DNA of 35,478 nt from Pseudomonadota bacterium (GTDB lineage: Bacteria; Pseudomonadota; Gammaproteobacteria; Burkholderiales; JALYOK01): positions 1 through 35,478 of the forward strand of contig JANOGO010000055.1 of assembly GCA_031406045.1 (NCBI GenBank). Reading direction: 5' to 3'. The notes below the pieces were generated by a model. The model saw only the letters and a list, made by a program, of their open reading frames with translations, did no database searches and had not been told where the DNA came from. Below, in pieces: positions 1,908 to 21,199 of this stretch. The stretch's first letter is position 1, and the number at the start of each line of letters is the position of its first letter. A program made the position numbers and the translations under genes.

Positions 1908-1924
1908 TCAAACCAGGAGCCGCC

Positions 1925-4114
1925 ATGGCCGCCGAACCGTCTTATATTCACACTGCAAATCAGGCGATGTTTAAGTCCGATCAGGGCGATGCACTGCTGA
2001 CGACTTTTTCGTTATTGCTGCAACATTACGGCATCACAAAAAGTGAAGAAGTGCTGGTCGCCGGGCTGCCGATCAAAGAAAAGGTCACGCCCGAATTATT
2101 GTTGCGCATCGCCGATGCCAATGGCTGCAAAGCAACGGTCAAAGTACGCGGCCTGCAAGAAATTTCCGATTTGTTGTTGCCGGTGATCCTCGAATTGCAC
2201 GACAACCAAGCTTGCGTGTTTCTCAAGCGTCTGGACGATAAACGCGCGCTGGTGCTGATGCCGGAAACGGGCATGCAAGAAGTCGCGGTGGATCTTGCCG
2301 ACATTCGCGATGAATATGCCGGACGCTGCTATTTTGTGAAGCCGGAACTTAAACCGGACGAGCGTTCCGGCATCGAAGTTAAAGCGGCGCCGGGCCATTG
2401 GTTTTGGAGCACGTTGTGGCGCTATAAACCCTATTACATCGAAGCGGCACTTGCGGCGTTACTGATTAACGTTCTCGCATTGGCGGGTACATTTTTTACC
2501 ATGAACGTCTACGATCGCGTGATCTCGAATCAAGCTTACGTTACGTTATGGACACTCGCAATCGGCGTAACCGTGGCGCTGCTGTTCGAATTCGTCGCGC
2601 GTATTTTGCGCGGTTGGCTGATCGACAACGCCGGGAAAAAAGCCGACTTGGTGTTGGGCGCAAAAGTATTTCGCCAAGCGTTGATGTCGCGGCTGGAATA
2701 TCGCGCGGCATCGGCCGGCGCGTTCGCCAACAACTTGCGCGAGTTTGAATCGCTGCGTGATTTCGTTACGTCGTTGACGCTGGTGGCGATCACCGATTTG
2801 CCCTTCTTATTTTTGTTTATCTGGGTGATTTCGTTAATCGCCGGCCCGCTATTTTGGGTGCCGTTGCTGGCGATTCCGGTGATGGCCCTCGTTTCCGGCT
2901 TGGCGCAAATTCCATTATCGCGCTACGTTAACGAGAACATGCGCGAGTCGTCGATGAAACATGGCTTGCTGGTGGAAGCCGTAGAAGGCGGCGAAACCGT
3001 CAAAGCGCTGCGCGCCGAAGGTTTGATGCAAGGCAAGTATGAATTGTCCAGCGCGGTCACGGCGCGCACCGCAATGAAAAGCCGCTTGGTGACCAGCTTC
3101 GTTTTAAATTTCGCGTACGTGGTGCAATCGTTGTGCACCGTCATTATGGTGGTATGGGGTGTTTACATCATCGGCGAGGGCAAACTGACGATGGGCGCGT
3201 TGATCGGCGCGGTGATTCTGTTAGGCCGCGCCATGGCGCCGATCAGCAGTCTTACGGGCCTTGCCGTGCGCTTCCAGCAAGCGCGCACCGCGCTGGGCAT
3301 GTTAAACAAAGTGATGGCGACGCCGACCGATCGCGAAGAAGGCCGCAACTATTTGCACAAACCAAAACTGACCGGAAATATGGCAACCAAGGAACTCGCT
3401 TTCAGTTACGGCCAAGATTTGCCGCTGGCGATTAATGGCGTCGATCTGCAAATTGCGCCGGGCGAACGCATCGCGATGCTCGGCCGAATCGGCAGCGGAA
3501 AGTCTACGTTGCTGAAATTAATGTCGGGGCTTTATCGCGCGCAGAAAGGCAGCGTGCTGGCCGACGGCGTCGACATCCAACAAATCGAGCCGGCCGATTT
3601 GCGACGCAACGTGTTGTACGTCAGCCAAGAAGCGCGCTTGTTTTATGGAACGTTGCGCGAAAACTTGAAAGCCGGCAATCCACGTGTTGACGACGATACG
3701 ATGGTGAAAGTATCGACTGCGTTTGGCGTGCACAATTTTGCCGCGAGCCATCCGCGCGGTTACGACATGATGATCGGCGAGCAAGGTGCCGGGCTCTCCG
3801 GCGGCCAGCGTCAGGCGGTCGCGCTTGCGCGGGCAGTGTTGACCAACCCTGCGGTGTTGTTACTCGACGAACCGACCAGCGCGATGGATAACGGTACCGA
3901 ACAAGCGGTGATGCAAGCGCTACTGCAATTCGGCCAAGATAAAACCATTATTTTTGTCACGCATAAATTACAATTATTGAATTTTGTCGAGCGCGTCATC
4001 GTCATTGATGCCGGCGTGCGTGTCGCCGATGGACCCAAACAATTGGTGATGCAGGCGTTGAGTGAAGGGCGTGTGAAAGGTGTGCCGAAAGCCGCCGGCG
4101 GAGGGAGTGAATAA
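1925..4114 (+). CDS. Type I secretion permease/ATPase (LapB/LssB family) with an N-terminal C39-like domain
   Basis: RBS AGGAG, FFTMNVYDRV transmembrane motif, Walker A GRIGSGKST, signature LSGGQRQ and Walker B LLLDEPT. Confidence 0.95.
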   Translation: MAAEPSYIHTANQAMFKSDQGDALLTTFSLLLQHYGITKSEEVLVAGLPIKEKVTPELLLRIADANGCKATVKVRGLQEISDLLLPVILELHDNQACVFLKRLDDKRALVLMPETGMQEVAVDLADIRDEYAGRCYFVKPELKPDERSGIEVKAAPGHWFWSTLWRYKPYYIEAALAALLINVLALAGTFFTMNVYDRVISNQAYVTLWTLAIGVTVALLFEFVARILRGWLIDNAGKKADLVLGAKVFRQALMSRLEYRAASAGAFANNLREFESLRDFVTSLTLVAITDLPFLFLFIWVISLIAGPLFWVPLLAIPVMALVSGLAQIPLSRYVNENMRESSMKHGLLVEAVEGGETVKALRAEGLMQGKYELSSAVTARTAMKSRLVTSFVLNFAYVVQSLCTVIMVVWGVYIIGEGKLTMGALIGAVILLGRAMAPISSLTGLAVRFQQARTALGMLNKVMATPTDREEGRNYLHKPKLTGNMATKELAFSYGQDLPLAINGVDLQIAPGERIAMLGRIGSGKSTLLKLMSGLYRAQKGSVLADGVDIQQIEPADLRRNVLYVSQEARLFYGTLRENLKAGNPRVDDDTMVKVSTAFGVHNFAASHPRGYDMMIGEQGAGLSGGQRQAVALARAVLTNPAVLLLDEPTSAMDNGTEQAVMQALLQFGQDKTIIFVTHKLQLLNFVERVIVIDAGVRVADGPKQLVMQALSEGRVKGVPKAAGGGSE

Positions 4115-5322
4115 TGGCAACGACGGTAGTTACGCGCAGCGACGAGTTGCTCTACATGCGCGACATGCATCAAGCCATGGTCGCGGAGAAACAAAATGTC
4201 ATCGGCGTGACTTTGCTTTTGTTAATGGCCTGTTTGGGCGCAGCGCTGTATTGGGCCAATACGTTTAAGCTTGAAGAAATTACGCGCGGCAATGCTAAGG
4301 TCATTCCGTCCAGCCGCGAACAAATAATTCAAAGCTTGGAGGGCGGGATTTTGTCGGAGTTGATGGTGAAGGAGGGTGACGTTGTAACGCAAGGTCAGCC
4401 GCTGTTACGCATCGATCCGACGAAGGCGAAAGCGTCGTACCAAGAGGGACAAAACAAAGCGCTGGCATTGCGCGCGACGGCCTCACGGCTGCGTGCCGAA
4501 GCGCGCGGCACGCAGTTGCAGTTCAGTGCTGATGTGAAGCAATTGCCGGAGTTGGTCAAAAACGAAACCAATACCTATCAAGCGAAACGTCAGGCGCTCG
4601 AGCAAAGCACCACGACAATTAAACGCAGCAAAGAATTAATCGCGCGCGAGCTGGCGATGACCGAGCCGATGGCCGCCAAAGGCTTGGTTTCCGAGATCGA
4701 ATTGTTGCGCATGCGCCGCCAAGTCAACGAACTGGAATTGCAAATACAGGAGCGCTTTAACAAATACCGCGCCGATGCGGCGAACGAATTAAACAGGGTC
4801 GAGGCGGAACTGTCGCAAACCACCGAAGTGGTCGGCGCGCGCCAAGATCAAGTCAAACGTACGACGATCAACGCGCCGCTGCGCGGCACAGTGAAAAATA
4901 TCCGCATGAATACCATCGGCGGTGTAGTGCAGCCGGCGCAGGACATCATGGAAATCGTTCCGCTGGAAGATCGCTTGCTAGTCGAAGCAAAAATTCGTCC
5001 GCACGATGTTGCGTTCCTGCATCCCGGCCTGCCCGCGACGGTAAAAATCAGTGCTTATGACTACAGCATTTATGGTGGACTCGAAGGCGAAATCGAAATC
5101 ATCAGCCCCGACACATTGCGCGAAGAAAAAAAGAGCGAAGACGAAAATTATTATCGGGTATTGATCCGCACAAAAAATTCCACGCTAACCAACAATGGAA
5201 AAGAACTCCCGATTATTCCCGGCATGACCGCCAGTGTTGAAATTCGCACCGGTGAAAAAACCGTGCTGGATTACATTTTGAAGCCGGTGTTAAAAGCGCG
5301 TGAAGCTATGCGCGAGCGTTAA
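4114..5322 (+). CDS. HlyD-family T1SS membrane fusion protein (LapC-like)
   Basis: N-terminal transmembrane helix, IQSLEGGIL, a coiled coil, YDYSIYGGL and a PGMTASVEIRTGEKTVLDYILKP C-terminus. TAATG overlap with the ABC gene. Confidence 0.95.
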   Translation: MATTVVTRSDELLYMRDMHQAMVAEKQNVIGVTLLLLMACLGAALYWANTFKLEEITRGNAKVIPSSREQIIQSLEGGILSELMVKEGDVVTQGQPLLRIDPTKAKASYQEGQNKALALRATASRLRAEARGTQLQFSADVKQLPELVKNETNTYQAKRQALEQSTTTIKRSKELIARELAMTEPMAAKGLVSEIELLRMRRQVNELELQIQERFNKYRADAANELNRVEAELSQTTEVVGARQDQVKRTTINAPLRGTVKNIRMNTIGGVVQPAQDIMEIVPLEDRLLVEAKIRPHDVAFLHPGLPATVKISAYDYSIYGGLEGEIEIISPDTLREEKKSEDENYYRVLIRTKNSTLTNNGKELPIIPGMTASVEIRTGEKTVLDYILKPVLKAREAMRER

Positions 5323-5395
5323 GCCAGGCGGCACGTCCTGCTTGCCTCTTGACAAGGCATGGCTGGAGAAGCACTATCCATGCGGTTCCTGGAGC
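5322..5395 (+). repeat. Copy A of a degenerate ~70-bp intergenic repeat
   Basis: 5336-5372 matches 35170-35206 at 30 of 37 nt without gaps. Related copies lie near 21820 and 25160. Confidence 0.6.
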
Positions 5396-5412
5396 GATTG
5401 CAAAAGACGCCT

Positions 5413-5895
5413 TTACTGGTAGGGCGTTCCGTCTTTGTGGGCGAAGCGCCATTTGCCTTCCACCGATATGGCCACAATATCGTCATCCGGATAAATTACT
5501 GAATCGCCCGGCGTTCGATCGCCGACTTCTAGATAGACGACGTCCTCGCTCGTATTGTTGATCAGCCGGTGCGCATCGTCGCTGCCCGCCTTGAAGCCCG
5601 CACACATCCCCGCCGAGAGTAAAGTTTCGCCGCAATCAGTCACAAGCATCGGAGTACCTTGCAAAATGTAAACAAACTCATCTTGCCTAGAATGCGCATG
5701 CCGCAACGCCGACACGGTTCCCGGTGGCAGCCTAGCGAGATTCACACCGAAATTACTCAAGCTGAACAGATCGCCGAGCGGATGCTTCTCACGTCCCTTC
5801 ATCTGCGAAGCAAACGGCTCGGGATAGTTGGACGGCTTGGTTCGCAGCGGCGCAGCGGCGGCGAAGATGGCAACAGGAAGGTTTTGTTCGAACAT
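5413..5895 (-). CDS. Cupin-domain protein
   Basis: Cupin motifs LRHAHSRQDEFVYILQG and GFKAGSDDAHRLIN, with a YPDDD...FAHKDGTPY end. Start placed at ATG 5895 (the ORF track starts at 5943). Confidence 0.85.
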   Translation of the reverse strand: MFEQNLPVAIFAAAAPLRTKPSNYPEPFASQMKGREKHPLGDLFSLSNFGVNLARLPPGTVSALRHAHSRQDEFVYILQGTPMLVTDCGETLLSAGMCAGFKAGSDDAHRLINNTSEDVVYLEVGDRTPGDSVIYPDDDIVAISVEGKWRFAHKDGTPYQ

Positions 5896-5969
5896 ATTCA
5901 GTTTCAAGCGATCATTCCCAAACTGTTCATTGACTGGGAGCACCTTACGCCTGCCGCGAAATGGAGGGT

Positions 5970-6224
5970 TTAGACCGATGCATCGCGGAACGCGCGAAGA
6001 ACTATGTTGATTCGCGTTTGGTACCCAGGCCCTTGCGCCTTAAACCATTCCAGGACGTCTTGGTCGACCCTAAGCGAGATGGATGTTTTGGATGGCAAAG
6101 GCATTAAACCGCGTCGAACGACGCCACGAACGATGTGACGGATATCGGCTTCAGCATGGTCCTCGACCGATCGAGATGGCCGCTCACTTTTCTTGAGACG
6201 CGCCCAATCAGTTTTGGATTTCAT
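5970..6224 (-). CDS. brnA: BrnA-family antitoxin
   Basis: KTDWARL N-terminus and KTSISLRVDQDVLEWFKAQGPGYQTRINIVLRAF C-terminal motif. Start is ATG 6224 or GTG 6245; the 182-aa ORF in the track is over-extended through the toxin gene. Confidence 0.88.
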   Translation of the reverse strand: MKSKTDWARLKKSERPSRSVEDHAEADIRHIVRGVVRRGLMPLPSKTSISLRVDQDVLEWFKAQGPGYQTRINIVLRAFRDASV

Positions 6225-6483
6225 TGAAGAAGATGTTGGCTTCACGGTTAGTTGCTTTGCGGAACGAGATGATGCGGATTTCATGTTCGGTCTCCGTATG
6301 AACGATTGAAACGGGAATGCCCGCGAGCAGTCCAAGCGTGATAAAGCGCTGCTCACCTTAGGAGAATCGATCATCTTCAAAGGTGTAGGTGACACCCTCA
6401 AATACACGAGGTGCATCAACAAAATCCAGCCCGTGAGCTTTTTGATTCGCGGCGCGCTTCGCAACTGACCACGTGAACTCCAT
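6208..6483 (-). pseudogene. brnT: BrnT-family toxin with an in-frame stop codon
   Basis: Manual translation: MEFTWSVAKRAANQKAHGLDFVDAPRVFEGVTYTFEDDRFS*GEQRFITLGLLAGIPVSIVHTETEHEIRIISFRKATNREANIFFNEIQN. The TAA is at 6358-6360. HGLDF, GExR and RIISxRKA are BrnT hallmarks. Not in the ORF track. Confidence 0.85.
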
Positions 6484-6812
6484 ACGAGAATCGTATATAC
6501 GTTTAGTAGTGGCGTCAATCAGCGTCGATCACGCCTAGCATAAGTACCCGTGCGGTCACGGGCTGGTCTCTGGCTACCGGGAGCGAACCCGCTGAGCAAC
6601 TTGCATTCGGTGCGATGGTCCTTGGTGACCTTGTGCGCTTCGCTGATGGACCTACTCAACGGTTCATATGTGGGTTGTGTGGTTACGGGACACCGAGTCC
6701 GCGTGCGCCGTGCGCACCTCGCCTGCTATAAGACCATGCCGGAGAGCCAGTGGCCCAAGGTCACTCAGTAGCCATGCGGTTCTTCGGCATGTTTCATTCG
6801 CATCGCGTTGTT

Positions 6813-6910
6813 TGTTGGGGTTCGTACCTCACCCCAACCTACGCGCCGGATAAGCCTCGTGGTAATGCTTTGATCGTAGTAGGGCGGATGAGTCGAAGCC
6901 GTTATCCGCC
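6813..6910. repeat. Two GTAG-type REP elements
   Basis: 6813-6842 reads GTAGGTTGGGGTGAGGTACGAACCCCAACA on the reverse strand. 6879-6910 reads GTAGGGCGGATGAGTCGAAGCCGTTATCCGCC. Each is a GTAG foot followed by a hairpin. Confidence 0.75.
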
Positions 6911-6995
6911 GCATGCACACATACGTCGGAATGGCCCACGGCCAACCGGGGCGTTTCACTTTTCCTACGAGCGATTAGTCGTAAAGCAGAATTCG

Positions 6996-7859
6996 TCATA
7001 GACTCTCAAACCACCCGGCATTTATGCTTACTCGTTCAACGAGTTCGGTTTTCACTCCGAGGCCTAACTCCTTCAGTTTCTCAGCGAGTTCGTCGCCGTC
7101 AACAAGATCAATTGGCGGTGCACCATCGCGTGTTGCTTCCTTTACCGCTGCCGGCGTAAAAGAGCCTGTGGTAATGAATAAGCCTTTGTCGGCACGCCCG
7201 ACCATCGCGCCACGGAAATCTCGAATTTCTCCGGCTGCAACGGAGCCTTTGTAGCGTTTACATTGAAATAAAACGTGAAAACTCATGAAGCCATGGATGC
7301 GAGCGATACCCTTTCCATCAATTCCACCATCCCCCGTTCGGCCAGTAACTTCAACATGGATAAACCCAGACTCGCGCAAAATTCGTTGTACTAATCGCTC
7401 GAATCCCGCTGGTTCAAGGCGTTGCGTGAGTACCGCTGAAAGCTTATCTTTCCATCCCTCTTCTTCTGACAGTTCTCTCGCGGTTTCATCAGGTGGGCGT
7501 TTTTTGGGAGCATCTAATTTATCAAGGGCGCGGACAAAGCGCACAACCTCTGTGGAATCTACGGTTTGAGATATCCTAGCTTTTTCTGTGAGTGACCAAA
7601 CGCCGCGGCTTGAGTTTTCCAATAAACCGTACTTCCGCAAATAAGTTCGTGCCCACGCAAGACGATAGCCAACTTCGGTTTGGCTACTCTTTTCCGGGTC
7701 GTGAAGTTGGGCAAGGACTTCATCAGACAGACCCGTAATTTCAACGGTCTTGGCATAAATCTCCTCGATTGAGCCCGACCCGCCGAGCTTTCGAAGAGCT
7801 TCAAGTAGCGGATTCATCAAGTCGTCAAAAGTCGGAAGCGTGGTTGTCGTGGCCATCAT
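6996..7859 (-). CDS. mrr: Mrr-family (type IV, modification-dependent) restriction endonuclease
   Basis: Mrr N-terminal domain (PTFDDLMNPLLEAL...RLAWARTYL...RGVWSLT) and catalytic domain (FERLV, TGRTGDGGIDG, QCKRY, GLFITTGSFT, IDLVDG). Start is ATG 7859 or 7856. Confidence 0.92.
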   Translation of the reverse strand: MMATTTTLPTFDDLMNPLLEALRKLGGSGSIEEIYAKTVEITGLSDEVLAQLHDPEKSSQTEVGYRLAWARTYLRKYGLLENSSRGVWSLTEKARISQTVDSTEVVRFVRALDKLDAPKKRPPDETARELSEEEGWKDKLSAVLTQRLEPAGFERLVQRILRESGFIHVEVTGRTGDGGIDGKGIARIHGFMSFHVLFQCKRYKGSVAAGEIRDFRGAMVGRADKGLFITTGSFTPAAVKEATRDGAPPIDLVDGDELAEKLKELGLGVKTELVERVSINAGWFESL

Positions 7860-7930
7860 ATCCAGCGCAAAGTGTTGATCTATTTTTCGGAAATCCAAAT
7901 TGACGTTGGCGCTTTAGGTACTCAGCGCGT

Positions 7931-8017: not shown

Positions 8018-9778
8018 TTATTTCTTCGGCACATAAAGATCAGTAATCGTCCCCTCAGCCATTTCCGCTGCCATCGCGAACGTTTCCGATAACGTCGGAT
8101 GCGGATGAATGCTCAGGCCGATGTCTTCCGCGTCGGCGCCCATTTCCAACGCGAGGACGGCTTCTGCGATTAGCTCACCGGCGTTGACGCCGACGATTCC
8201 CGCGCCGAGGATGCGTTTGGTTTTTTTGTCGAACAATACTTTGGTAAGGCCTTCTTCGCGTGCGGTGCCGAGGGCACGGCCGCTGGCGGCCCAGGGGAAT
8301 ACGGCTTTGTCGTATTCAATGCCGGCGGTTTTTGCTTCGGCTTCGGACATACCCATCCACGCGATTTCTGGGTCGGTGTACGCGACGTTCGGGATTGTCT
8401 TCGCGTCGAACGCGGCTTTGTGGCCGGCGATGACTTCGGCAGCAACTTTCGCTTCGTGCGTCGCTTTATGCGCGAGCATCGGTTCGCCGACGATGTCGCC
8501 GATGGCGTAGATGCCGGGGACGTTGGTGCGCTGTTGTTTGTCGACAGGGATGAAGCCGCGCTCATTCACGGTGATGCCTGCGGCTTCGACGCCGATGAGT
8601 TTGCCATTTGGCCGGCGGCCGACGGCGACGAGAATGCGATCGTAGACTTGCGGTTCGGGCGCTTGTTCGCCTTCGAAGTAGGCTTTTAGGCCGGCTTTCG
8701 ATGCTTCGATTTTCGTGACTTTGGTTTTGTGTTAATTTTTCTCGTAGCGTTTTTCGATGCGTTTGGCTAAGGGCTTAACGATGTCGGGATCGGCGCCGGG
8801 GATGAGTTGGGGCATCAATTCAACAACGCTGACTTTCGCGCCGAGCGCATCGTACACCGTCGCCATTTCCAAACCGATAATGCCGCCGCCGATAATCAAC
8901 ATGCGCTTCGGCACATCGGCGAGTTCCAATGCATCGGTGGAATCCATCAGGCGCGGATCGTCCCAGGGGAAGCCCGGCAGCTTCACCGCTTGTGAACCCG
9001 CGGCGATGATGCAGTGATCGAACGATAGCGTTTTCACGCCATCTTTAGTTTCGATGCTCAGCGATTTCGGCGAGGCGAATTTCGCCGTGCCGTGAATGAC
9101 CGTGACTTTGCGTTGCTTCGCTAATCCGCTTAAACCTTTGGTTAATTTTCCGACGACAGATTCCTTGAACTTGAGCACTTCCGGCAAGTCGATTTTTGGC
9201 AAACCAAAAGTCACACCGTGATGCGCCGCGTCGGCCGCGTCGGCGATGACTTTCGCGGTGTGCAGCAAAGCTTTCGATGGAATGCAACCGACGTTCAAAC
9301 AAACGCCGCCCAAGGTTTCGTAGCGTTCGATCAGCGTGACTTTTTTGCCGAGATCGGCGGCGCGAAACGCGGCGGTGTAGCCACCGGGTCCGGCGCCGAG
9401 CACAACAACTTCTGCATCGAAATCGGCGTTCGGTTTTGCACTTGGCGCGGCGACAACTGCGCCGGGAGGTGGCTGGAGAGGCGCGCCCTTATTGGCTTCC
9501 GGCGATGTTACCGCGGGCGCCGGGCTTGCCGTTTGGCCCGATGCCTCAAGCATGAGAATCAACGAGCCTTGGGAAACTTTATCGCCCAATTTCACTTTCA
9601 ATTCTTTGACGACGCCGGCGATTTCAGTCGGCACATCCATCGTGGCTTTGTCCGATTCCAGCACGATCAGCGATTGTTCTGCCTTAACCGTTTCGCCGGG
9701 CTTAACCAGCACTTCGATCACTTCTATATCTTTGAAATCGCCGATGTCGGGGACTTTTATTTCGATTGGGTTGCTCAT
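8018..9778 (-). pseudogene. lpdA: Dihydrolipoamide dehydrogenase (E3) with an N-terminal lipoyl domain, interrupted by an in-frame TAA (real lesion or sequencing error)
   Basis: Lipoyl motif LESDKAT, FAD motif GAGPGG, redox CLNVGC, GGGIIG and HPHPTLSE. ORFs 8732-9778 and 8018-8569 share one frame and read RYEKN*HKTKVTKIEA across the TAA at 8732-8734. Confidence 0.9.
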
Positions 9779-11493: not shown

Positions 11494-14154
11494 TTACACC
11501 AAACGCGGATTATCTTTCTCAGGATCAATGCCATATTTCTTGATCGCCTGACTCACGACGCTTGACTTAATCGTACCTTCATCGGCTAATGCTTTCAGCG
11601 CGGCGATGGTAACAAAATGACGATCGACTTCGAAAAATTTGCGTAATTGCTGCCGGCTGTCGGAGCGGCCGAAACCATCGGTACCGAGTGCAACATAGCG
11701 CCCAGGCATAAATTCGCGAATTTGATCGGCATAGGATTTCACATAGTCGGTGGCCGCAACGGCAGGCCCAGCTTGGTTCTTCAGGCATGCACTCACGTAA
11801 GGCAAGCGCGGAGCGGCTTCCGGGTGCAGCATGTTCCAGCGCGAGCAATCAAGCGCCTCGCGGCGTAGCTCGTTAAAACTGGGCGTACTCCAAATATCCG
11901 ATTCGACGCCCCAATCTTTTTTCAGCAACTCAGCGGCGGCGATGACTTCGCGGAAAATCGTGCCGGAGCCGAGTAATTGCACGCGCGGCGCTTTAGATTT
12001 CGCCGCGCCGGCTTGAAATAAATACATGCCTTTGATGATGCCGTCTTCGGTGCCTTTCGGCATTTGCGGATGAACGTAGTTTTCATTCATCAACGTCAAA
12101 TAATAAAAAACGTTTTCCTGTTTTTCGTACATGCGTTTCATGCCGTGCTGAATAATCACCGCGACTTCGTACGAGAAAGTTGGATCGTAGGAAATACAAT
12201 TGGGAATAAAGGATGCATGCAAATGGCTTTGGCCATCTTGATGTTGCAAGCCCTCGCCGTTTAGCGTGGTGCGCCCCGCAGTGCCGCCGAGCATGAAGCC
12301 GCGCGCTTGAATATCGCCCGCCGCCCAAGCCAAGTCGCCGATGCGTTGGAAGCCGAACATCGAGTAATAAATGTAAAACGGAATCATGTTGACGCCGTGA
12401 TTCGAATAGGCGCTGGCGGCGGCGATCCATGACGACATCGCGCCCGCTTCGTTGATGCCTTCTTCCAAAATCTGTCCCGCTTTATCTTCGCGGTAATAGA
12501 GCAATTGGTCTTTATCGACCGGCGTGTAGAGCTGGCCTTGCGACGAATAAATACCGAGCGTACGGAACAAACCTTCCATGCCGAAGGTGCGCGCCTCGTC
12601 GGGCACAATCGGCACAATGAATTTGCCGATTTCTTTGTCGCGCGTGAGCATAGTGAGCATGCGGACGAATGCCATCGTCGTGGAAATCTCGCGCTCTTCG
12701 GTGCTTTTCAACAACACTTCGAAAGTTTCCAATGTCGGAATTTTGTGCGCTGGTGCGGACTGGCGGCGTGACGGTAAGTAACCGCCGAGCGCTTTGCGAT
12801 GTTCTTTCATGTAGACGATGATTGGATCGTCATCGTCCGGTTTGTAGAACGGCACATCGGCGATTTTATCGTCGGCAATCGGCACGTTGAATCGATCGCG
12901 GAATTTCTTTAGCGCTTCCACGTCCATTTTCTTTTGCTGGTGCGTGGTGTTCTTCGCTTCGCCGATGGCGCCCATGCCGTAGCCTTTGACGGTCTTGGCG
13001 AGGATGACGGTCGGCTGGCCTTTGTGTTTCGTAGCTGCGGCGTAGGCTGCGTAAATTTTGTGCGGATCGTGACCGCCGCGATTTAAGCGCCACACGTCGT
13101 CGTCGGTCATGCGCGAAACCAGCTCCAGCGCTTTGGGATGCTTACCGAAAAAATGTTTGCGGACGTAGGCACCGTCATTGGCTTTGTAGTTTTGATATTC
13201 GCCGTCGACAGTGTCTTCCATGATTTTTTGCAGCACGCCGTCTTTATCGCGGGCGAGCAGGGGATCCCAATAAGAACCCCAGATCAGCTTGATGACATTC
13301 CACCCGGCACCGCGAAAATCACCTTCCAGTTCCTGAATGATTTTGCCGTTGCCGCGCACCGGGCCATCGAGACGCTGCAAGTTGCAGTTCACGACGAAAA
13401 TTAAGTTATCGAGATTTTCGCGTTGCGCCATGCCGATCGCGCCGAGCGACTCCGGCTCGTCCATTTCGCCATCGCCGCAGAAACACCACACTTTGCGATT
13501 TTCTGTATTGGCGATGCCGCGGGCGTGCAGATATTTCATGAAGCGCGCTTGGTAGATCGCCATCAGTGGCCCGAGGCCCATCGACACGGTGGGAAATTGC
13601 CAAAAGTCCGGCATCAGCCAGGGATGCGGATACGACGTGACGCCTTTGCCGGTGACGTCGCGGCGAAAGTTATTGAGTTGATCTTCCGTCAAGCGACCTT
13701 CCAAAAAGGCGCGAGCGTAAATGCCCGGCGCTGAATGGCCTTGGAAATAAACGAGATCACCGCCATGGTCGGCACTAGGCGCATGCCAAAAATGATTGAA
13801 GCCAACGCCAAACAGCGTCCCCACCGACGCGAAGCTGGCGATGTGGCCGCCGAGCTCGTCATCGTTTTTGTTGGCGCGAACGACCATCGCCAGGGCATTC
13901 CAGCGGCAAATGGAGCGAATGCGTTCTTCCATCGCGGCATCGCCGGGCGAACGCTCCTCCATTTGCGGCGGAATGGTATTGATGTACGCGGTATTGGCGC
14001 TGTACGGAATATGAGCGCCGGAGCGACGCGCCTTGTCCGTCAGCAACGCAATCAGTTGGTGGGCGCGCTCGGGACCTTCGCGTTCGATAACGGCGTCCAG
14101 CGCGTCAAGCCATTCTTGTGTTTCGCTTTGGTCAAATTCCGGCACAGCGGCCAT
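11494..14154 (-). CDS. aceE: Pyruvate dehydrogenase E1, homodimeric type
   Basis: 886 aa. ETQEWLDAL, GGHIASFAS, FPTVSMGLGP, TPP motif GDGEMDEPES and TLNGEGLQH. RBS AGGAG. Confidence 0.98.
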   Translation of the reverse strand: MAAVPEFDQSETQEWLDALDAVIEREGPERAHQLIALLTDKARRSGAHIPYSANTAYINTIPPQMEERSPGDAAMEERIRSICRWNALAMVVRANKNDDELGGHIASFASVGTLFGVGFNHFWHAPSADHGGDLVYFQGHSAPGIYARAFLEGRLTEDQLNNFRRDVTGKGVTSYPHPWLMPDFWQFPTVSMGLGPLMAIYQARFMKYLHARGIANTENRKVWCFCGDGEMDEPESLGAIGMAQRENLDNLIFVVNCNLQRLDGPVRGNGKIIQELEGDFRGAGWNVIKLIWGSYWDPLLARDKDGVLQKIMEDTVDGEYQNYKANDGAYVRKHFFGKHPKALELVSRMTDDDVWRLNRGGHDPHKIYAAYAAATKHKGQPTVILAKTVKGYGMGAIGEAKNTTHQQKKMDVEALKKFRDRFNVPIADDKIADVPFYKPDDDDPIIVYMKEHRKALGGYLPSRRQSAPAHKIPTLETFEVLLKSTEEREISTTMAFVRMLTMLTRDKEIGKFIVPIVPDEARTFGMEGLFRTLGIYSSQGQLYTPVDKDQLLYYREDKAGQILEEGINEAGAMSSWIAAASAYSNHGVNMIPFYIYYSMFGFQRIGDLAWAAGDIQARGFMLGGTAGRTTLNGEGLQHQDGQSHLHASFIPNCISYDPTFSYEVAVIIQHGMKRMYEKQENVFYYLTLMNENYVHPQMPKGTEDGIIKGMYLFQAGAAKSKAPRVQLLGSGTIFREVIAAAELLKKDWGVESDIWSTPSFNELRREALDCSRWNMLHPEAAPRLPYVSACLKNQAGPAVAATDYVKSYADQIREFMPGRYVALGTDGFGRSDSRQQLRKFFEVDRHFVTIAALKALADEGTIKSSVVSQAIKKYGIDPEKDNPRLV

Positions 14155-14600
14155 AAAATCTCCTAAAAGTCACAATTTCGTCCGCGTCAGTCGCAGGAAA
14201 ACCAATTACTTCAACTTACTAAAAGGTTTTATTAGATTTTTGTTGAAAAAACATATACATTTCGGCTAAACTAAAGGTAAATACGAAATAACGACATTAA
14301 CCGGTTATTACGGTTAAAGAAAAACCCGTAGCGTGATGACAGTGCGAAGTCGAACACCGTAATGGCGGTGACGTTAGCTGCTTGGGTAGCGCAGTTTTGT
14401 GTGCTTATCATGGCGGCAACTCCATGGATCGCATGAAGTGCGTAGTCAGCATTGAATAGATGACTGTATTATAAAGACTTTGTGCCGTAAACGGAAGTGC
14501 TGGCGACAGTTTTTTTAAGAGATTGTGAGTATTTAAACTAGCGCGCTGCTCAGGAGGCAAATGATTTGTCCCGCTGCAGCATTGAGGATTCGTACCAAGA

Positions 14601-15437
14601 ATGACAATGAGTGGCGCAATCGAGGTGGTAAGTCGAACAGACCCCGGAAAGGTTCGTTCGCACAATGAGGATTTTGTCGCGCATGAAGCTGAGATCGGTG
14701 TGGTACTTTTAGCGGACGGCATGGGCGGTTATAACGCCGGCGAAGTGGCCAGCGGTATGGCGGCGCGCATTATCGTCGAAGGCTTAAGCCATGCTTGGCG
14801 GGGCCTCACGGCGAATACGCGTGCCGTCGAAAACAGTATCGGTATCGCGGGAAATTCGATACAACAACAGGTCGAACGAGCGAATTGGGCGATTTTTGAG
14901 AAGGCGCAAAATGAACCGCAATGCGCCGGCATGGGCACGACGCTGGTCACCGGTTTGTTTTACGATAACCATCTGACGGTTGGGCATATCGGCGATTCGC
15001 GCCTGTATCGGCTGCGCGGCGAGGCGTTGGATCAAATCACTAAGGATCATTCGCTGTTGCAGGAGCAAGTCGACAGCGGCCTAATCAACAAGGAAGATGC
15101 GCGCAAATCGCGCAACAAAAATTTGCTAACGCGGGCCCTTGGCATCGATCCTAAAGTCGAAGCCGAAATTCATAGCCACGCAGTGTTACCGGGCGATATT
15201 TATTTGATTTGCTCGGACGGTCTGAACGATATGGTCGACGATGAAGAAATTCGTTTGACCTTGTTAACGTTGCAATCGAATTTAGCGTTGGCGGCGGATC
15301 AATTAGTATTGTCCGCGAACGATAACGGCGGCCGCGACAACGTCTCGGTGGTCCTGGCGAAAGTATTGCAAGCCTTTCCAGCCAAACGCGGTTGGTTGGC
15401 AAAAATGAAGTCCTGGTTTAGTTCACGAGGAAATTAA
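14601..15437 (+). CDS. PP2C/PPM-family Ser/Thr protein phosphatase (Stp1-like)
   Basis: RSHNED, LADGMGG, GMGTT, HIGDSRLY, DHS, TRALG, CSDGL and GGRDNVS motifs. Confidence 0.95.
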   Translation: MTMSGAIEVVSRTDPGKVRSHNEDFVAHEAEIGVVLLADGMGGYNAGEVASGMAARIIVEGLSHAWRGLTANTRAVENSIGIAGNSIQQQVERANWAIFEKAQNEPQCAGMGTTLVTGLFYDNHLTVGHIGDSRLYRLRGEALDQITKDHSLLQEQVDSGLINKEDARKSRNKNLLTRALGIDPKVEAEIHSHAVLPGDIYLICSDGLNDMVDDEEIRLTLLTLQSNLALAADQLVLSANDNGGRDNVSVVLAKVLQAFPAKRGWLAKMKSWFSSRGN

Positions 15438-15438
15438 G

Positions 15439-16206
15439 ATGGCAGGAAAACTTGTTTTAACGCTTGATGGTTCGGTTCTTGGGGAATATTTCCTAGGCAA
15501 GGAACGCGTCCTGATTGGACGTAAACCCCATAACGATATTCAGATCGATAACCTTGCGGTCAGCAGCGAGCACGCCGCGGTGATTACCATACTCAACGAT
15601 TCCTTCATGGAAGACTTGGGGAGCACCAATGGCACCTTGGTTAACGGCCAAATGGTGAAGAAACACTTCTTGCAAAATGGCGACGTCATCGAGCTCGGGA
15701 AACATCGGTTGAAATACCTGAACGATACGCCCAGCGCGACCACTGCCGAAGACTTCGAAAAAACCATGGTGATGCGACGTCCGATGACTGTCACGGCGCC
15801 GGTCGCGCAAGTCGCGATGGTAGGAGGCGATACGATGGTCGGTAAACAAGCGTTTACCGGCACGGCGACTTCGCGCCCGGTGAGCTTGGCTGCGGCGCCC
15901 GCACCCGTTGCGCCGTCGCCGGCTGCGCCGATCGCAACGAGTGCTTCGATCCAAATCCTCAATGGCGGCAACGCCGGCCGTGTGATGGAATTAACGAAAA
16001 CCTTAACCACTCTCGGTAAACCCGGCGTGCAGGTTGCGGTAATTACGAAACGGCCTACCAGTTACTTCATTACCCACGTTGAAGGCTTGACGTATCCGGT
16101 GTTAAACGGCGTTAACCTCAGTGCTCAAGCGCAGCCGCTAGCGGATCACGATATTATTGAAATCGCCGGTATCAAAATGGAGTTTTTTATGAGTGCAGCA
16201 CACTAA
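15439..16206 (+). CDS. FHA-domain protein (intact N-terminal FHA, Ala/Pro linker, degenerate C-terminal FHA-like domain)
   Basis: IGR...VSSEHA...DLGSTNGT...LQNGDVIELG. The second domain ends LADHDIIEIAG but lacks the GR and SxxH residues. Confidence 0.9.
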   Translation: MAGKLVLTLDGSVLGEYFLGKERVLIGRKPHNDIQIDNLAVSSEHAAVITILNDSFMEDLGSTNGTLVNGQMVKKHFLQNGDVIELGKHRLKYLNDTPSATTAEDFEKTMVMRRPMTVTAPVAQVAMVGGDTMVGKQAFTGTATSRPVSLAAAPAPVAPSPAAPIATSASIQILNGGNAGRVMELTKTLTTLGKPGVQVAVITKRPTSYFITHVEGLTYPVLNGVNLSAQAQPLADHDIIEIAGIKMEFFMSAAH

Positions 16207-16224
16207 TCGAGGGCAAAGCGGCCA

Positions 16225-16989
16225 ATGAGGTTCGAGGTTCTCGGCTGTAGCGGAGGCGTTGGCGCGAATTTAAGAACAACGTCGTTCTTGGTTGACGAAG
16301 ATATCTTAATCGATGCCGGTACCGGTGCAACGGATCTCACGCTCGCGCAACTCGCCAAGATCGATCACGTCTTCGTAACCCATTCACACCTAGATCATGT
16401 GGCCGCGATTCCGTGGATAGTCGATACCGTCGGCAGCGCCAGAAAAAAACCGCTGGTGGTGCATGCGCTGGATGCAACGATCCGAACGCTGAAAGACCAT
16501 ATTTTTAATTGGCGTATCTGGCCCGATTTCACACGTATACCGACCGCCGAACAACCCTATTTGATGTTCGAATCGATGACCATCGGGGAAGAAATGAAAA
16601 TGGGCAATCGGACCATTCAATCAATCGCGTCCAACCATGTTGTGCCGAGCGTGGGCTATCGCATCGACAGTGGTAAAGCCAGTTTGATTTTCAGCGGTGA
16701 CACGAGCACCAGCGATGCGCTGTGGCAGGCAGCCAACCAATGCGAAAATTTGCGCTACATTTTGATTGAAACGGCATTTTCGAATCGAGATAAAGCGGTT
16801 GCCGACGCCTCGAAGCATCTTTATCCGCTGCAATTGGCGGCAGAACTGAAAAAATTTACCGGGCAGGCTGAGATTTATATTACGCACATGAAGCCTGGCG
16901 AAGAAGATTCGATTATGAACGAGATCGCGGCGGCGATGACGAATTTTAAGCCGAGAAAACTCGATCATGGCCAAGTTTTCGAGCTGTAG
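16225..16989 (+). CDS. Class II-like 3',5'-cyclic-nucleotide phosphodiesterase (metallo-beta-lactamase fold)
   Basis: VLGCSGG, IDAGTG, THSHLDH, LKDHIFNWRIWPDF, FSGDT, IETAFSN, HLYP and ITHMKP. No signal peptide. Confidence 0.82.
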   Translation: MRFEVLGCSGGVGANLRTTSFLVDEDILIDAGTGATDLTLAQLAKIDHVFVTHSHLDHVAAIPWIVDTVGSARKKPLVVHALDATIRTLKDHIFNWRIWPDFTRIPTAEQPYLMFESMTIGEEMKMGNRTIQSIASNHVVPSVGYRIDSGKASLIFSGDTSTSDALWQAANQCENLRYILIETAFSNRDKAVADASKHLYPLQLAAELKKFTGQAEIYITHMKPGEEDSIMNEIAAAMTNFKPRKLDHGQVFEL

Positions 16990-17161
16990 AAAGGGCAGAA
17001 TTTGTTTGAAATTTGCCGTGCCGCGCCCACAGCAGTTTGGGATCCGATTTAACAATAAGCCACGCGGGGCAAATGAGGAATTGTTAACAATGATTAAAAT
17101 ACTTGTGTTGATAACTGAAAAGTTTATGCTATCGAGTCTAGTTGCTTAGGGTAGGGTTGAA

Positions 17162-19540
17162 ATGAGTGCCGTACTTGAGCCAAAACGCGCTGCAGCGGAC
17201 GGTGAATCGAACCCGAACGCCCGGGCGGATTTTGCAAAAAAATTGCAAGGTATCAGCGATCGCGCGCTCGCCGCGACGACGCTGGATGAATTTATGGCCG
17301 ACCTCAGCAAAGAGGTCTGCGAATTATTTGAGGCGGATCGCCTAACGGTCTACACGATTACCGAGGATAAGTCCTCATTGATTTCCCGCGTTAAGACCGG
17401 GCTTACCTCATTCAAAGATCTCAAACTTCCGATTACCGAAACCAGTGTTGCGGGGTATTGCGCTTACCATAAAGCGGTTTTTAAAGTAAACGATGTTTAC
17501 GATGAAAACGAGCTAAAGAAATACAATCCGCGGTTACATTTCTTGAAAGAAGTGGATCGCCGAACCGGCTACCGCTCAAAGCAAATGTTGCTTGCGCCGG
17601 TGTTAAGCGGCGACGAACGGCCGCAACTTCTGGGCGTGTTGCAACTAATCAATACCTTGTCCGGCGTGCCGTTTCCCGATGGCGAACTGGCGCGTATTTC
17701 GGAGTTATCGAAAGTATTAGCGCCGGCGTTTCGACCGCGCCAGCAAACGGCACAGATTGGCACCAAGTACGATTTTCTCGTTTCCGATAATGTTATCTCG
17801 TCCGGCGAACTAGACCTCGCCGTTCGTTCGGCGCGACGCAAAAATGTCGATATCGAAGACGTATTAATCGAAGAATTTCAGATCAAGTCATCGGTCTTGG
17901 GCCAAGCGCTGGCGAAATTTTTTCAAGTCGCACACGAACCCTACAAATCCGATCGCATGAAGCCGATGGATTTGTTGCGCAACATCAAGCGCGAGTACGC
18001 CGCGAGTGCGCAATGGATGCCGATCGAAGAAAACAAAGACGGCATCGTTATCATGACGACGGACCCGGAGAGAATCCGCGCATCCCATGTCGCGCGAAAC
18101 GTGTTCGTTAAAAATAAATTGATCTTCAAGGTCACGACTCACCGTGAGTTTGTCCAGACCCTCGATCAGTTTTTCTCGGATGGCTCCACCGCCGGCGGGT
18201 CGATCGATGAAATGTTGTCGGGCATGGAGCAGGATTCCGGCGACGATGCGTTGGCGCCGGAAGATGTTTCAGCCGCGTCGGACAATGAGCTGGTTAAATT
18301 TGTAAATAAAGTCATCATCGATGCCTACAATCAAGGTGTCTCTGACATTCATGTTGAGCCGTATCCGGGAAAAAATAAAACCGAAATTCGCTTCCGTAAA
18401 GACGGCTCGCTGATGCTCTATATTGAAGTGCCGGCCAGCTACCGATCGCCCTTGGTGACGCGTTTGAAGATCATGTGCGATCTGGATATTTCCGAGCGTC
18501 GCAAGCCGCAAGACGGCAAGATCAAGTTTAAGAAATACGGCCCGCTCGATATCGAATTGCGTGTCGCCACGATCCCCACTGCCGGTGGCCTTGAAGACGT
18601 GGTCATGCGTATTCTTGCGGCCGGCGAACCGTTGCCGCTGGATAAGCTGGGGTTGTCTAGGCGCAACGAAGAAAACCTAAAGAAAGTGGTCAGTAAACCC
18701 TACGGCTTATTTTTCTGTTGCGGCCCAACCGGTTCGGGTAAAACGACAACGCTGCACTCTGTGCTGAAACACATCAACACGCCGGATACCAAAATTTGGA
18801 CGGCAGAAGATCCGGTTGAGATTACGCAAAAGGGCTTGCGCCAGGTTCAGATGAACAATAAAGCGGGGCTGAATTTCGCGACGGCGATGCGGGCATTTTT
18901 GCGTGCCGATCCCGACGTGATTATGGTCGGTGAGATGCGCGATAAAGAAACCACGCAGATCGGCATCGAAGCCTCGCTGACCGGTCATTTAGTGTTCTCA
19001 ACCTTGCATACCAACAGCGCGCCGGAAAGTATTTTGCGTTTGCTGGATATGGGCATGGATCCGTTTAACTTTGCCGACGCAATTCTCGGCATTTTAGCGC
19101 AGCGTTTGGCCAAGCGCTTATGCGCCAATTGTAAAAAACCGCATGTTTCGACACAAGAAGAAATCAAGCGATTGCTCACGGAATATTGCGAAGAACTCAC
19201 CAATACCTCGGACTGGAAAAGCGATCCGCAAGGCGCATTCCGCAAAGTTTATGAGGATTGGGTAAAAGATTTTGCCAACGAAAAAGGCGAGTTCACTCTC
19301 TATACGCCGGTCGGATGCGATGCCTGCGGCGGCACCGGTTACCGCGGACGGATCGCGTTACATGAGCTGATGGTCGGCAGTGATACGGTGAAAAAAGCGA
19401 TTCAAGAAAAAGCGCGTGTGTCCGAACTTTTTGCGATTGCGCTGTCGGAAGGTATGCGTACCTTGAAGCAGGATGGCATTGAAAAGATCCTGACCGGTAT
19501 CACCGATATCGCGCAGGTGCGAGCAGTTTGTATCAAATAA
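17162..19540 (+). CDS. GspE/PilB-family traffic ATPase with an N-terminal GAF domain
   Basis: GAF (NDVY...DRRTGYRSKQMLLAPV...GVLQLIN), SDIHVEP, PQDGK, Walker A GPTGSGKTTT, TAEDPVE, RADPDVIMVGEMRD, His box GHLVFSTLHTN and CxxC...CxxC. Confidence 0.92.
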   Translation: MSAVLEPKRAAADGESNPNARADFAKKLQGISDRALAATTLDEFMADLSKEVCELFEADRLTVYTITEDKSSLISRVKTGLTSFKDLKLPITETSVAGYCAYHKAVFKVNDVYDENELKKYNPRLHFLKEVDRRTGYRSKQMLLAPVLSGDERPQLLGVLQLINTLSGVPFPDGELARISELSKVLAPAFRPRQQTAQIGTKYDFLVSDNVISSGELDLAVRSARRKNVDIEDVLIEEFQIKSSVLGQALAKFFQVAHEPYKSDRMKPMDLLRNIKREYAASAQWMPIEENKDGIVIMTTDPERIRASHVARNVFVKNKLIFKVTTHREFVQTLDQFFSDGSTAGGSIDEMLSGMEQDSGDDALAPEDVSAASDNELVKFVNKVIIDAYNQGVSDIHVEPYPGKNKTEIRFRKDGSLMLYIEVPASYRSPLVTRLKIMCDLDISERRKPQDGKIKFKKYGPLDIELRVATIPTAGGLEDVVMRILAAGEPLPLDKLGLSRRNEENLKKVVSKPYGLFFCCGPTGSGKTTTLHSVLKHINTPDTKIWTAEDPVEITQKGLRQVQMNNKAGLNFATAMRAFLRADPDVIMVGEMRDKETTQIGIEASLTGHLVFSTLHTNSAPESILRLLDMGMDPFNFADAILGILAQRLAKRLCANCKKPHVSTQEEIKRLLTEYCEELTNTSDWKSDPQGAFRKVYEDWVKDFANEKGEFTLYTPVGCDACGGTGYRGRIALHELMVGSDTVKKAIQEKARVSELFAIALSEGMRTLKQDGIEKILTGITDIAQVRAVCIK

Positions 19541-19543
19541 TAA

Positions 19544-21199
19544 GTGATCGCCGATAATCGAAGCGACGCTGCCAACACGAAGATATCGGGCAGCGACGTA
19601 CTCGAACGGCTTAATTTTCTCTCCCGCGTAAGCAAAGAACTCTCCAGCGAGCACAATACCGCACGCTTGTTGGAGACGATTCTGAACGCCGCGCAACACA
19701 TCACCAATGCCGATGGCGGTACGCTGTATCGCGTCACGTCCGACGACAAGCTGATGTTCGAAATTGTCCGCACCGATTCCCTCGGCGTCATTATGGGCGG
19801 CACTAGCGGTTTGCCGGTCGCGATTCCTCCGATCGCGCTGCACGATGCAGCAGGCAATCCCAACCTCGCGATGGTGGCGCCCTATGCGGTGCTGAAGGAT
19901 GAGACGGTGAATATCGCCGATGTCTATTCAGCGAAGGACTTTGATTTTTCCGGGACGCGCGCCTTCGACGAGCGAACCGGTTATCGCTCGGTTTCGTTTC
20001 TGACGGTGCCGATGAAAAATCACCAAAACGAAATGATCGGCGTGTTGCAATTAATCAACGCCCGCGACGACACAACACAATCGATTATTCCATTCAGCCA
20101 AGCCGACCAACAATTCACCGAAGCGCTGGCATCGCAGGCGGCGATCACGCTGACCAATCGCTCATTAATTAATCAACTGCAAGAATTGTTCGAGTCGTTC
20201 GTCGGTTTGATCAATAAAGCAATCGACGAAAAGTCGCCGCACACTAGCCGCCACTGCTCACGCGTTCCGGAGCTGACAATGTTGCTCGCCGACGCCGCGC
20301 ACGACGTCGACTATGGCCCGTTGTCGAGCTTTCGCATGACCGATAAGGATCGCTATGCGTTGAAGCTGGCCGGGCTGTTACACGATTGCGGAAAGATCAC
20401 CACGCCGGTTCACATCATCGATAAAGCGACTAAGCTTTCGACCATTTTTGATCGCATTGAGCTGATCGATACACGATTCGAAATTTTGATTCGCGATCTC
20501 AAAATGAAGGCGATTAAAAATCTACCGGCTATCACGAAACAATCCGATATCGATGCGGTCGATGCGCAACTCGCGAGCGCGCTCGCTCAATTGGACGACG
20601 ATCGTGCATTCCTGCGTCGCGTAAACCAGGGCGGTGAAAGCATGCGGCCAACCGATCAAGCGCGAATCGAGGCGATTGCGCGCTACACCTACATCGACGC
20701 CGCGGGTCATTCCCAAGCGTTTCTGAGCGCCGATGAAAGCGATAACCTAAAGATCGACCGCGGGACCTTAACGCCGGCCGAACGCTCGACCATCAATCAC
20801 CACATCGTGTCGACCATTAGCATGTTGGAAGCACTACCGTGGCCAAAGCATTTAGAAAAAGTACCGGAATACGCCGGCGCGCATCACGAGCGCATGGATG
20901 GCAAAGGCTATCCGCGCGGGCTGCGCGGCGATCAGATGTCGGTGCCGGCGCGGGCCATGGCGATCGCCGATATTTTCGAAGCACTCACTGCGAAAGACCG
21001 GCCGTACAAATCGGCGAAAAAGCTTTCCGAATCGTTGCAGATTCTCGGCAAATTCAGCGAGAACGGCCATATCGATCCGGACCTTTTCCGTGTGTTTGTG
21101 CGCGAAAAAATCTATTTAAAATTTGCCGAGGCGTTTCTCGACCCCGAGCAAATTGATCCGGTCGACCACGCCAAAATTCCCGGTTTTCGACCCGAATAA
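19544..21199 (+). CDS. GAF-domain HD-GYP protein (putative cyclic-dinucleotide phosphodiesterase)
   Basis: N-terminal GAF, then KSPHTSRHC, LHDCGK, HHERMDGKGYPRGL, IADIFEALT and RPYK. Confidence 0.92.
   Translation: MIADNRSDAANTKISGSDVLERLNFLSRVSKELSSEHNTARLLETILNAAQHITNADGGTLYRVTSDDKLMFEIVRTDSLGVIMGGTSGLPVAIPPIALHDAAGNPNLAMVAPYAVLKDETVNIADVYSAKDFDFSGTRAFDERTGYRSVSFLTVPMKNHQNEMIGVLQLINARDDTTQSIIPFSQADQQFTEALASQAAITLTNRSLINQLQELFESFVGLINKAIDEKSPHTSRHCSRVPELTMLLADAAHDVDYGPLSSFRMTDKDRYALKLAGLLHDCGKITTPVHIIDKATKLSTIFDRIELIDTRFEILIRDLKMKAIKNLPAITKQSDIDAVDAQLASALAQLDDDRAFLRRVNQGGESMRPTDQARIEAIARYTYIDAAGHSQAFLSADESDNLKIDRGTLTPAERSTINHHIVSTISMLEALPWPKHLEKVPEYAGAHHERMDGKGYPRGLRGDQMSVPARAMAIADIFEALTAKDRPYKSAKKLSESLQILGKFSENGHIDPDLFRVFVREKIYLKFAEAFLDPEQIDPVDHAKIPGFRPE

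Follow-up and report, generated by a model that had tools for sequence, protein, structure and literature searches.

A reduced, operon-like five-gene module with a GAF-fused PilB-like ATPase in a Burkholderiales genome, derived from a conserved, putative signalling cluster of Betaproteobacteria

Five genes at positions 14,601 to 21,199 of contig JANOGO010000055.1 (assembly GCA_031406045.1; Pseudomonadota bacterium, order Burkholderiales) probably form an operon-like module that has been reduced from a more complete, conserved betaproteobacterial cluster and in which an accessory pilus motor gated by a cyclic nucleoside monophosphate (cNMP) is combined with an HD-GYP phosphodiesterase and a phosphothreonine layer. 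The comparative part of this reading (a reduced derivative of a conserved operon that keeps erasers and effectors) is secure as a matter of sequence comparison; the mechanistic part (cNMP gating, an accessory type IV pilus motor and a phosphothreonine layer) we infer from family knowledge and gene neighbourhood. The window, meaning the whole stretch of 35,478 nucleotides that was analysed, is an entire 35.5-kb contig of a metagenome-assembled genome (87% complete, 425 contigs). Domains were called with Pfam and NCBIfam profiles, for which window open reading frames (ORFs) of at least 150 amino acids were scanned. Five intact, co-oriented ORFs separated by 1, 18, 172 and 3 bp were found on the plus strand where the initial annotation had placed them. 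All five gene identities proposed there were recovered by Pfam and NCBIfam, and the third gene was reassigned from a typical class II phosphodiesterase to a short, YhfI-like atypical class II form with a metallo-beta-lactamase (MBL) fold. The features were as follows.

14155-14600, no strand: spacer separating aceE (11494-14154, minus strand) from the divergently oriented PP2C gene, presumed to hold the promoter
14601-15437, plus strand: Stp1/IreP-type PP2C Ser/Thr phosphatase, 278 amino acids (NF033484, PF13672, PF00481)
15439-16206, plus strand: FHA protein, 255 amino acids (PF00498)
16225-16989, plus strand: predicted YhfI-like MBL-fold (atypical class II) cNMP phosphodiesterase, 254 amino acids (PF12706, PF02112)
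16990-17161, no strand: 172-bp gap from the MBL gene to the ATPase gene
17162-19540, plus strand: GAF-MshEN-PilB/GspE-family ATPase, 792 amino acids (GAF, 17282-17722; MshEN, 17963-18187; T2SSE core, 18275-19519)
19544-21199, plus strand: GAF-HD-GYP phosphodiesterase, 551 amino acids (GAF, HD, HD_5; GAF, 19664-20152; HD-GYP, 20249-21085)

Relatives were collected by scanning one genome per species; 595 of 601 candidate stretches encoded a relative of the ATPase, and the analysis continued with the 80 best loci. Almost every one of these came from a betaproteobacterium (Gallionellaceae, Rhodocyclaceae/Azonexaceae, Nitrosomonas, Chitinibacteraceae and many Burkholderiales bins), and three that were labelled otherwise (L045, L049 and L072) nested within the same clades in the ATPase tree. 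Relatives differed from the window in two places: some 2.3 kb separated FHA from MBL, and the PP2C gene was preceded by a long gene. By domain content the extra genes of L003 and L005 encoded a CHASE2-class III cyclase (742 amino acids) and a CHASE2-Ser/Thr kinase (846/862 amino acids), and a gene for a cNMP-binding-rhodanese protein was present in L003 between the MBL and ATPase genes. The full order is CHASE2-Ser/Thr kinase, PP2C, FHA, CHASE2-class III cyclase, MBL phosphodiesterase, cNMP-binding-rhodanese (variably present), GAF-PilB-like ATPase, GAF-HD-GYP and type IVa pilin. Synteny was counted by a tblastn survey of the 54 loci with at least 8.6 kb of sequence upstream and 1.7 kb downstream. 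CHASE2-kinase, PP2C, CHASE2-cyclase, MBL, ATPase and HD-GYP genes stood in the same order at 35 of the 54 (16 with the cNMP-binding-rhodanese gene, 16 without it and 3 with FHA coverage below threshold only), and the remaining 19 were assorted reduced forms, for example Nitrosomonas loci with the MBL and ATPase genes only. The cNMP-binding-rhodanese gene occupied the position of the window's 172-bp gap at 16 of the 54 loci, and gene order was kept across families at 50-70% protein identity. The initial annotation had read the window as the "eraser and effector" half of a signalling circuit and had predicted a co-occurring class III cyclase and Ser/Thr kinase; both writers lie inside the operon in most relatives (35/54 loci), and the synteny whose absence would have told against that reading is strongly conserved. 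Carrier loci included some labelled Gallionella/Sideroxydans, Nitrosomonas and Rhodocyclaceae, and cultured carriers included Chitinimonas viridis, Parachitinimonas caeni and Nitrosomonas sp. Nm51. No published characterisation had been known to the annotator, and a full-text literature search, with subscription journals largely outside its reach, likewise returned no account of the cluster or of a GAF-fused PilB.

Neither the CHASE2 writers nor the pilin is present in the window form, which adjoins aceE. The 22 other window ORFs of at least 150 amino acids were checked and, as the initial annotation had stated, contained no pilin, secretin, platform, type VI secretion system (T6SS), kinase or cyclase gene; a scan of the window for the prepilin motif gave no match. 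Identical gene order (aceF-aceE <> PP2C-FHA-MBL-ATPase-HD-GYP < mobA-apbC, metG) was found in five other assemblies of the same genus, so the reduced form is not an assembly accident. The aceE<>PP2C junction was present in 12 related loci, and these 12 aceE-adjacent clusters formed one clade in the ATPase tree (SH-aLRT 99). Trees were quick LG+G4 searches without bootstraps; L049 was set apart in the first tree, and a single clade was obtained when nine more aceE-adjacent sequences were included. Among 13 genomes of the window's family the ATPase was found in 13/13, the CHASE2-cyclase in 0/13 and the CHASE2-kinase in 0/13 (12/12, 0/12 and 0/12 when the unpublished G017 was excluded). Among 27 other families of the order (one represented by the unpublished G047) the corresponding counts were 14/27, 10/27 and 8/27. 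The absence of writers noted at the locus in the initial annotation is accordingly a derived state fixed across the family and not a limit of the window.

Intermediate and independent reductions were also present. L099, a member of the aceE-adjacent clade, had its cyclase still in place and its kinase gone, and two genera of the window's family were also without an adjacent HD-GYP gene (L001/L097 and L098). The writer-less loci L017/L071, L037 and L052 fell in different clades, which indicates that losses recurred. Catalytic and binding motifs were intact in all five window proteins. At columns conserved in at least 95% of orthologues, agreement with the consensus was 299/308 for the ATPase, 122/132 for the HD-GYP protein and, for the three small proteins, 59/61, 75/75 (PP2C, 36 orthologues) and 82/86. 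Judged by these columns, the five proteins are maintained despite the loss of the cluster's writers.

Replacement writers were sought elsewhere in the genomes. A REC-kinase was found in 13/13 genomes of the window's family and in 2/27 other families, an adjacent REC-cyclase in 12/13 and 3/27, and a kinase with a cNMP-binding domain in 13/13 and 13/27. In the other families the cNMP-binding kinase was present in 10/14 with the ATPase and 3/13 without it, and it often lay 8-30 kb from the cluster. Four class III cyclase-domain genes were present in the window's own genome. On contig C128 (475-3096; locus L089) genes for a REC-class III cyclase and a REC-Ser/Thr kinase stand next to each other and beside mfd, and a gene for a Ser/Thr kinase with a cNMP-binding domain is cut by the end of contig C305. 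The REC-cyclase/REC-kinase pair and the cNMP-binding kinase are the most likely candidate substitute writers. With catalytic domains only 31-32% identical to those of the CHASE2 proteins, the REC proteins are not claimed to have arisen by a mere exchange of domains. In G029 the CHASE2 kinase alone was lost and a REC-kinase was present (55% identity), which gives a second hint of a writer swap.

The ATPase was assigned to the T2SSE secretion-ATPase superfamily (T2SSE, 379.5 bits against a PF00437 cut-off of 24.9; GAF, 29.8 bits; MshEN, 36.7 bits), with Walker A GPTGSGKT at residues 521-528, Walker B DPDVIMVGEMRD at 583-594, CANC at 654 and CDAC at 719. It scored below the equivalog cut-offs for both PilB (TIGR02538; 488.5 against 675.65 bits, the highest of its NCBIfam scores) and GspE (TIGR02533; 448.6 against 630.25 bits). 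The c-di-GMP (cyclic di-GMP)-binding MshEN motif model NF053729 was not among its NCBIfam matches at E <= 0.001, so it was not classed as MshE-type. Pilus ATPases gated by c-di-GMP through MshEN include V. cholerae MshE, M. xanthus PilB and Thermus PilF. The ATPase described here resembles these in its PilB/GspE-family hexameric core, its N-terminal MshEN-type domain and its predicted N-terminal second-messenger sensor, and differs in the cNMP-type GAF fused in front, the lack of an accompanying platform gene and the missing NF053729 match. The closest solved structure to its GAF domain was CyaB2 (1ykd; Anabaena, cAMP-binding; E 2.6e-23), followed by PmGH and PDE10A; it was 28% identical to the GAF of the HD-GYP protein (E 8e-9). 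PDE2A was also among the best solved relatives of the two GAF domains.

Genes neighbouring the cluster were grouped from a greedy, non-overlapping ORF set, and some antisense shadow ORFs were disregarded. The recurrent gene just downstream of HD-GYP encoded a type IVa prepilin (in L002, PF00114 and N_methyl). Pilins were counted in 61 eligible loci, after 16 that were too short and 3 with a divergent arrangement had been left out. A same-strand prepilin started within 1 kb downstream in 30/61, and at 1.7-6.9 kb in 8 more; a looser prepilin motif occurred only 7 times in the 3.48-Mb own genome. In L001 and L045, from which HD-GYP is missing, the pilin directly followed the ATPase gene. The initial annotation had proposed a motor for a pilus or a type II secretion system (T2SS); the prepilin linkage in relatives favours the type IV pilus and disfavours the T2SS. 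No GspF/PilC homologue was found in the 80 loci or the window. Canonical PilB (828-868 bits, over the cut-off) was also present in 4/5 other carrier genomes. The own genome encoded a GspD-GspE-GspF set with a true GspE (738 bits) between GspD and GspF (C60), an MshE-like ATPase with the NF053729 c-di-GMP motif (58.7 bits against a cut-off of 38; C388), a C-terminal PilB fragment adjoining a PilC-like gene (C270) and three PilT-like genes. The GAF-ATPase is an additional paralogue without a platform gene of its own.

Very short pilins were present in 2-3 copies after HD-GYP in L005 (14087-15960), L030 (14390-17340) and L041 (14821-15240), from two Chitinibacteraceae strains and an Azonexaceae bin; counted from the GFTLIE motif, they end after 55-57 residues. 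They may be comparable to truncated Geobacter-type pilins, of which they are reminiscent.

The fifth protein was placed in the HD-GYP family by sequence (GAF, 56.9 bits; HD, 43 bits; HD_5, 135.7 bits; HDCGK at 280 and HHERMDGKGYP at 447-457). Its catalytic part was closest to V-cGAP3 (5z7c; 7.4e-23), PmGH (4mcw) and a c-di-GMP phosphodiesterase (4r8z), and its GAF to PDE5 (4e-17), CyaB2 and PmGH. An insert of about 100 amino acids (residues ~300-405, window 20440-20760) lies between the HD and HHExxDGxGYP motifs in 57/57 aligned orthologues and is absent from V-cGAP3 and PmGH. The GAF-HD-GYP architecture is shared with Tlr0485 of Thermosynechococcus vulcanus and with PmGH of Persephonella marina (4mcw), the latter matching both halves; the insert, the best catalytic match to V-cGAP3 and the operon link to a GAF-ATPase set the protein apart from both. 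The activity of Tlr0485 is reported to depend on cAMP at its GAF (cited in PMC8846402 and bioRxiv 10.1101/2021.11.05.467447). The own genome gave 18 GGDEF matches, which makes c-di-GMP turnover by the HD-GYP protein plausible.

The MBL protein scored 60.5 bits against PF12706 and 47.8 bits against PF02112 (PDEase_II; cut-off 23.7), the latter covering residues 45-110 only, and at 254 amino acids is shorter than typical class II enzymes (330-370 amino acids). Its HSHLDH motif lies at residues 53-58, and all metal ligands (H53, H55, D57, H58, H138, D159, H198 and H221) were invariant in 47 sequences. The closest solved relative by sequence was YhfI (6kns), which was also the top Foldseek match (E 1.8e-16, TM 0.78/0.81) of an AlphaFold2 model (predicted local distance difference test, pLDDT, 95.9). 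The next fold matches were RNase Z, yeast PDE1 (TMq 0.81) and Apyc1, and PhnP-type enzymes matched too. The protein has the sequence and fold features of class II phosphodiesterases and is predicted to hydrolyse cAMP/cGMP. The length of about 250 amino acids, the MBL fold and the HxHxDH motif are shared with B. subtilis YhfI, Rv1339, C. glutamicum CpdA and Apyc1; an identity of only ~20% and an invariant FNWxIWPDF segment, peculiar to the protein's own clade, set it apart. Short PF12706 enzymes of this kind have been termed "atypical class II" phosphodiesterases (PMC9293780), and YhfI is reported to prefer cAMP/cGMP (PMC9117128).

For the phosphothreonine proteins, the PP2C was assigned to the Stp1/IreP equivalog NF033484 (240.1 bits, cut-off 230) and carries the DGMGG motif. 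The FHA domain (PF00498, 69.7 bits, residues 24-87) has the GR/SxxH/TNGT motifs, and its phosphothreonine-pocket residues R28, S42, H45 and N64 were invariant in 26 sequences, as is characteristic of an FHA reader. Residues 1-95 of an AlphaFold2 model were aligned to the 6i2q chain (Z 16.8; root-mean-square deviation 1.8 over 95 residues), and the model also matched FhaA (3oun) and DgcB (6hbz; Z 15.5). A disordered linker rich in Ala and Pro joins the N-terminal FHA domain to a second beta-domain (residues 168-252). This C-terminal beta-domain (residues 161-255, window 15919-16203) was strongly conserved and was modelled with a pLDDT of about 90. It belonged to no Pfam family, one sub-threshold YscD match being returned (E 0.096), and the structural search was occupied entirely by matches to the N-terminal FHA domain. 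The C-terminal domain may represent a second, degenerate FHA. Threonine phosphorylation by PpkA, PppA and Fha1 controls the T6SS of P. aeruginosa. The cluster likewise ties a kinase/PP2C/FHA trio to a nanomachine, with the differences that the machine here is pilus-type and not a T6SS and that in this window the kinase is missing from the cluster. An FHA domain is also coupled to c-di-GMP metabolism in Bdellovibrio DgcB (FHA-GGDEF, 6hbz); unlike in the DgcB and Fha1 systems, the FHA protein here is a separate two-domain protein.

Taken as a working mechanism, a class III cyclase would produce a cytoplasmic cNMP, most likely cAMP, which the YhfI-like phosphodiesterase would degrade. Binding of the cNMP at the GAF of the HD-GYP protein would switch on c-di-GMP hydrolysis, by analogy with Tlr0485, and binding at the GAF of the PilB-like ATPase would gate an accessory type IV pilus extension motor, which would have to rely on PilC and other machine components encoded outside the cluster. 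A phosphothreonine layer, written by a Ser/Thr kinase, read by the FHA protein and erased by the PP2C, would act on some target. In the window's family, where the two membrane CHASE2 writers have left the cluster and were not found in the searched genomes, REC and cNMP-binding substitutes may have replaced direct CHASE2 sensing with two-component and cNMP input.

A number of observations weigh against this reading, and some of them are the basis of the alternatives considered here. The cAMP/cGMP assignment of the GAF ligand is taken from nearest solved relatives and not from modelled pocket residues, and the best solved match of the HD-GYP catalytic part, V-cGAP3, is a 3'3'-cGAMP-specific enzyme, so that c-di-GMP is only the predicted substrate. 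Consensus promoter and terminator sites between 14100 and 21900 were no more numerous than in shuffled sequence. Genes missing from the own genome are to be read as not found in an assembly that is 87% complete and in 425 contigs. In L065, L049 and L078, which belong to the aceE-adjacent clade, the cyclase is gone from the cluster and a full-length CHASE2 cyclase is encoded elsewhere in the genome (48-50% identity). The REC-kinase and REC-cyclase also occur together with full clusters in G035, and their link to the reduced cluster comes essentially from one lineage, whose genomes are not independent, and is to be read as a lineage-level correlation. It is unlikely that the ATPase is not a pilus motor at all, having been recruited for a T2SS or MSHA-type system elsewhere or as a nucleotide-gated signalling scaffold, with an incidental pilin linkage. 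Consistent with such a role, it falls under both the PilB and the GspE cut-offs, no platform, secretin or prepilin peptidase gene was found in the window or the 80 loci, a T2SS and an MshE-like system are encoded elsewhere in the own genome, and by motif no same-strand pilin was nearby in 23/61 eligible loci or in the window. Prepilins within 1 kb at 30/61 loci are far above the chance level given by the looser motif, however, and the pilin directly after the ATPase gene in the HD-GYP-less L001 and L045, as well as the top NCBIfam score for PilB, also argue for a pilus motor.

The GAF domains could instead sense another nucleotide or metabolite, with the module running without a dedicated cyclase in the window's family and the MBL protein acting on another substrate; this is considered quite improbable. 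Such a ligand would fit the retention of the module although the CHASE2 cyclase was not found in 13/13 family genomes, and the replacement of an Asn in the ATPase GAF domain (window 17162-17770). At least 95% of the 63 orthologous ATPases share this residue (consensus ..lNi.DVYd..), and its place is taken by Lys in the window and by His in L001. These two come from the family without CHASE2 writers; the Asn is retained in other writer-less lineages. The fold of the MBL protein is matched almost equally well by RNase Z-type enzymes and also by PhnP-type enzymes, and the GAF ligand of PmGH is reported as unidentified (bioRxiv 10.1101/2021.11.05.467447). Against another ligand, both GAFs matched cNMP-binding GAFs first (CyaB2 for the ATPase and PDE5 for the HD-GYP protein), most relatives encode a cyclase next to a YhfI-like phosphodiesterase within the operon, a cNMP-binding-rhodanese gene lies in the operon at 16/54 loci, and the own genome has its four class III cyclase-domain genes. 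That the five genes are adjacent and functionally unrelated is very improbable: the 172-bp gap ahead of the ATPase gene would permit it, but the other gaps are only 1, 18 and 3 bp and the order is conserved across families at the protein identities given above. A look-up of sequencing runs listed no RNA run covering the locus.

The module is flanked on one side by divergent aceE, aceF and lpd (pyruvate dehydrogenase) and on the other by mobA, apbC and metG. Sigma-70-like sites were seen in the aceE-PP2C intergenic region at 14243-14272 and 14443-14472, their count not exceeding that in shuffled sequence; no terminator-like or promoter-like site was seen in the 172-bp gap, and no Rfam match over the gathering score was obtained anywhere in the window, this gap included. 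The lipoamide dehydrogenase (E3) gene (8018-9778, minus strand) contains a single in-frame TAA at 8732-8734 (...YEKN*HKTKV...), the frame being open on both sides. Either a sequencing/assembly error or a nonsense mutation of recent origin accounts for it. The interval 570-7898 holds three type I secretion genes (TolC-like OEP, ABC exporter and HlyD) and, after this trio on the opposite strand, genes for a cupin, a BrnA-antitoxin-like protein and an Mrr-type restriction endonuclease.

Binding of c-di-GMP regulates type IV pilus motors, and cAMP does so indirectly, through transcription. To our knowledge, direct cAMP/cGMP gating through a GAF domain has not been described for any PilB/GspE ATPase. 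It is conceivable, and put forward here only tentatively, that cAMP/cGMP directly gates a pilus extension-type ATPase through its fused GAF in step with a cNMP-activated HD-GYP protein, and that the CHASE2 writers were swapped for REC versions. Were this so, one cNMP pulse would engage an accessory pilus motor and lower c-di-GMP together, and after the swap a two-component phosphorelay would provide the input in place of direct sensing at the envelope. A motor with a direct cAMP/cGMP readout, accompanied by the maker and breaker of that signal, a phosphothreonine switch and a c-di-GMP hydrolase, would bring three signalling currencies to bear on a single nanomachine. The cluster is widespread among environmentally important Betaproteobacteria, its presence in cultured strains makes it testable, and the writer-less family constitutes a natural experiment in which erasers and effectors have long been kept without the cluster's own writers.

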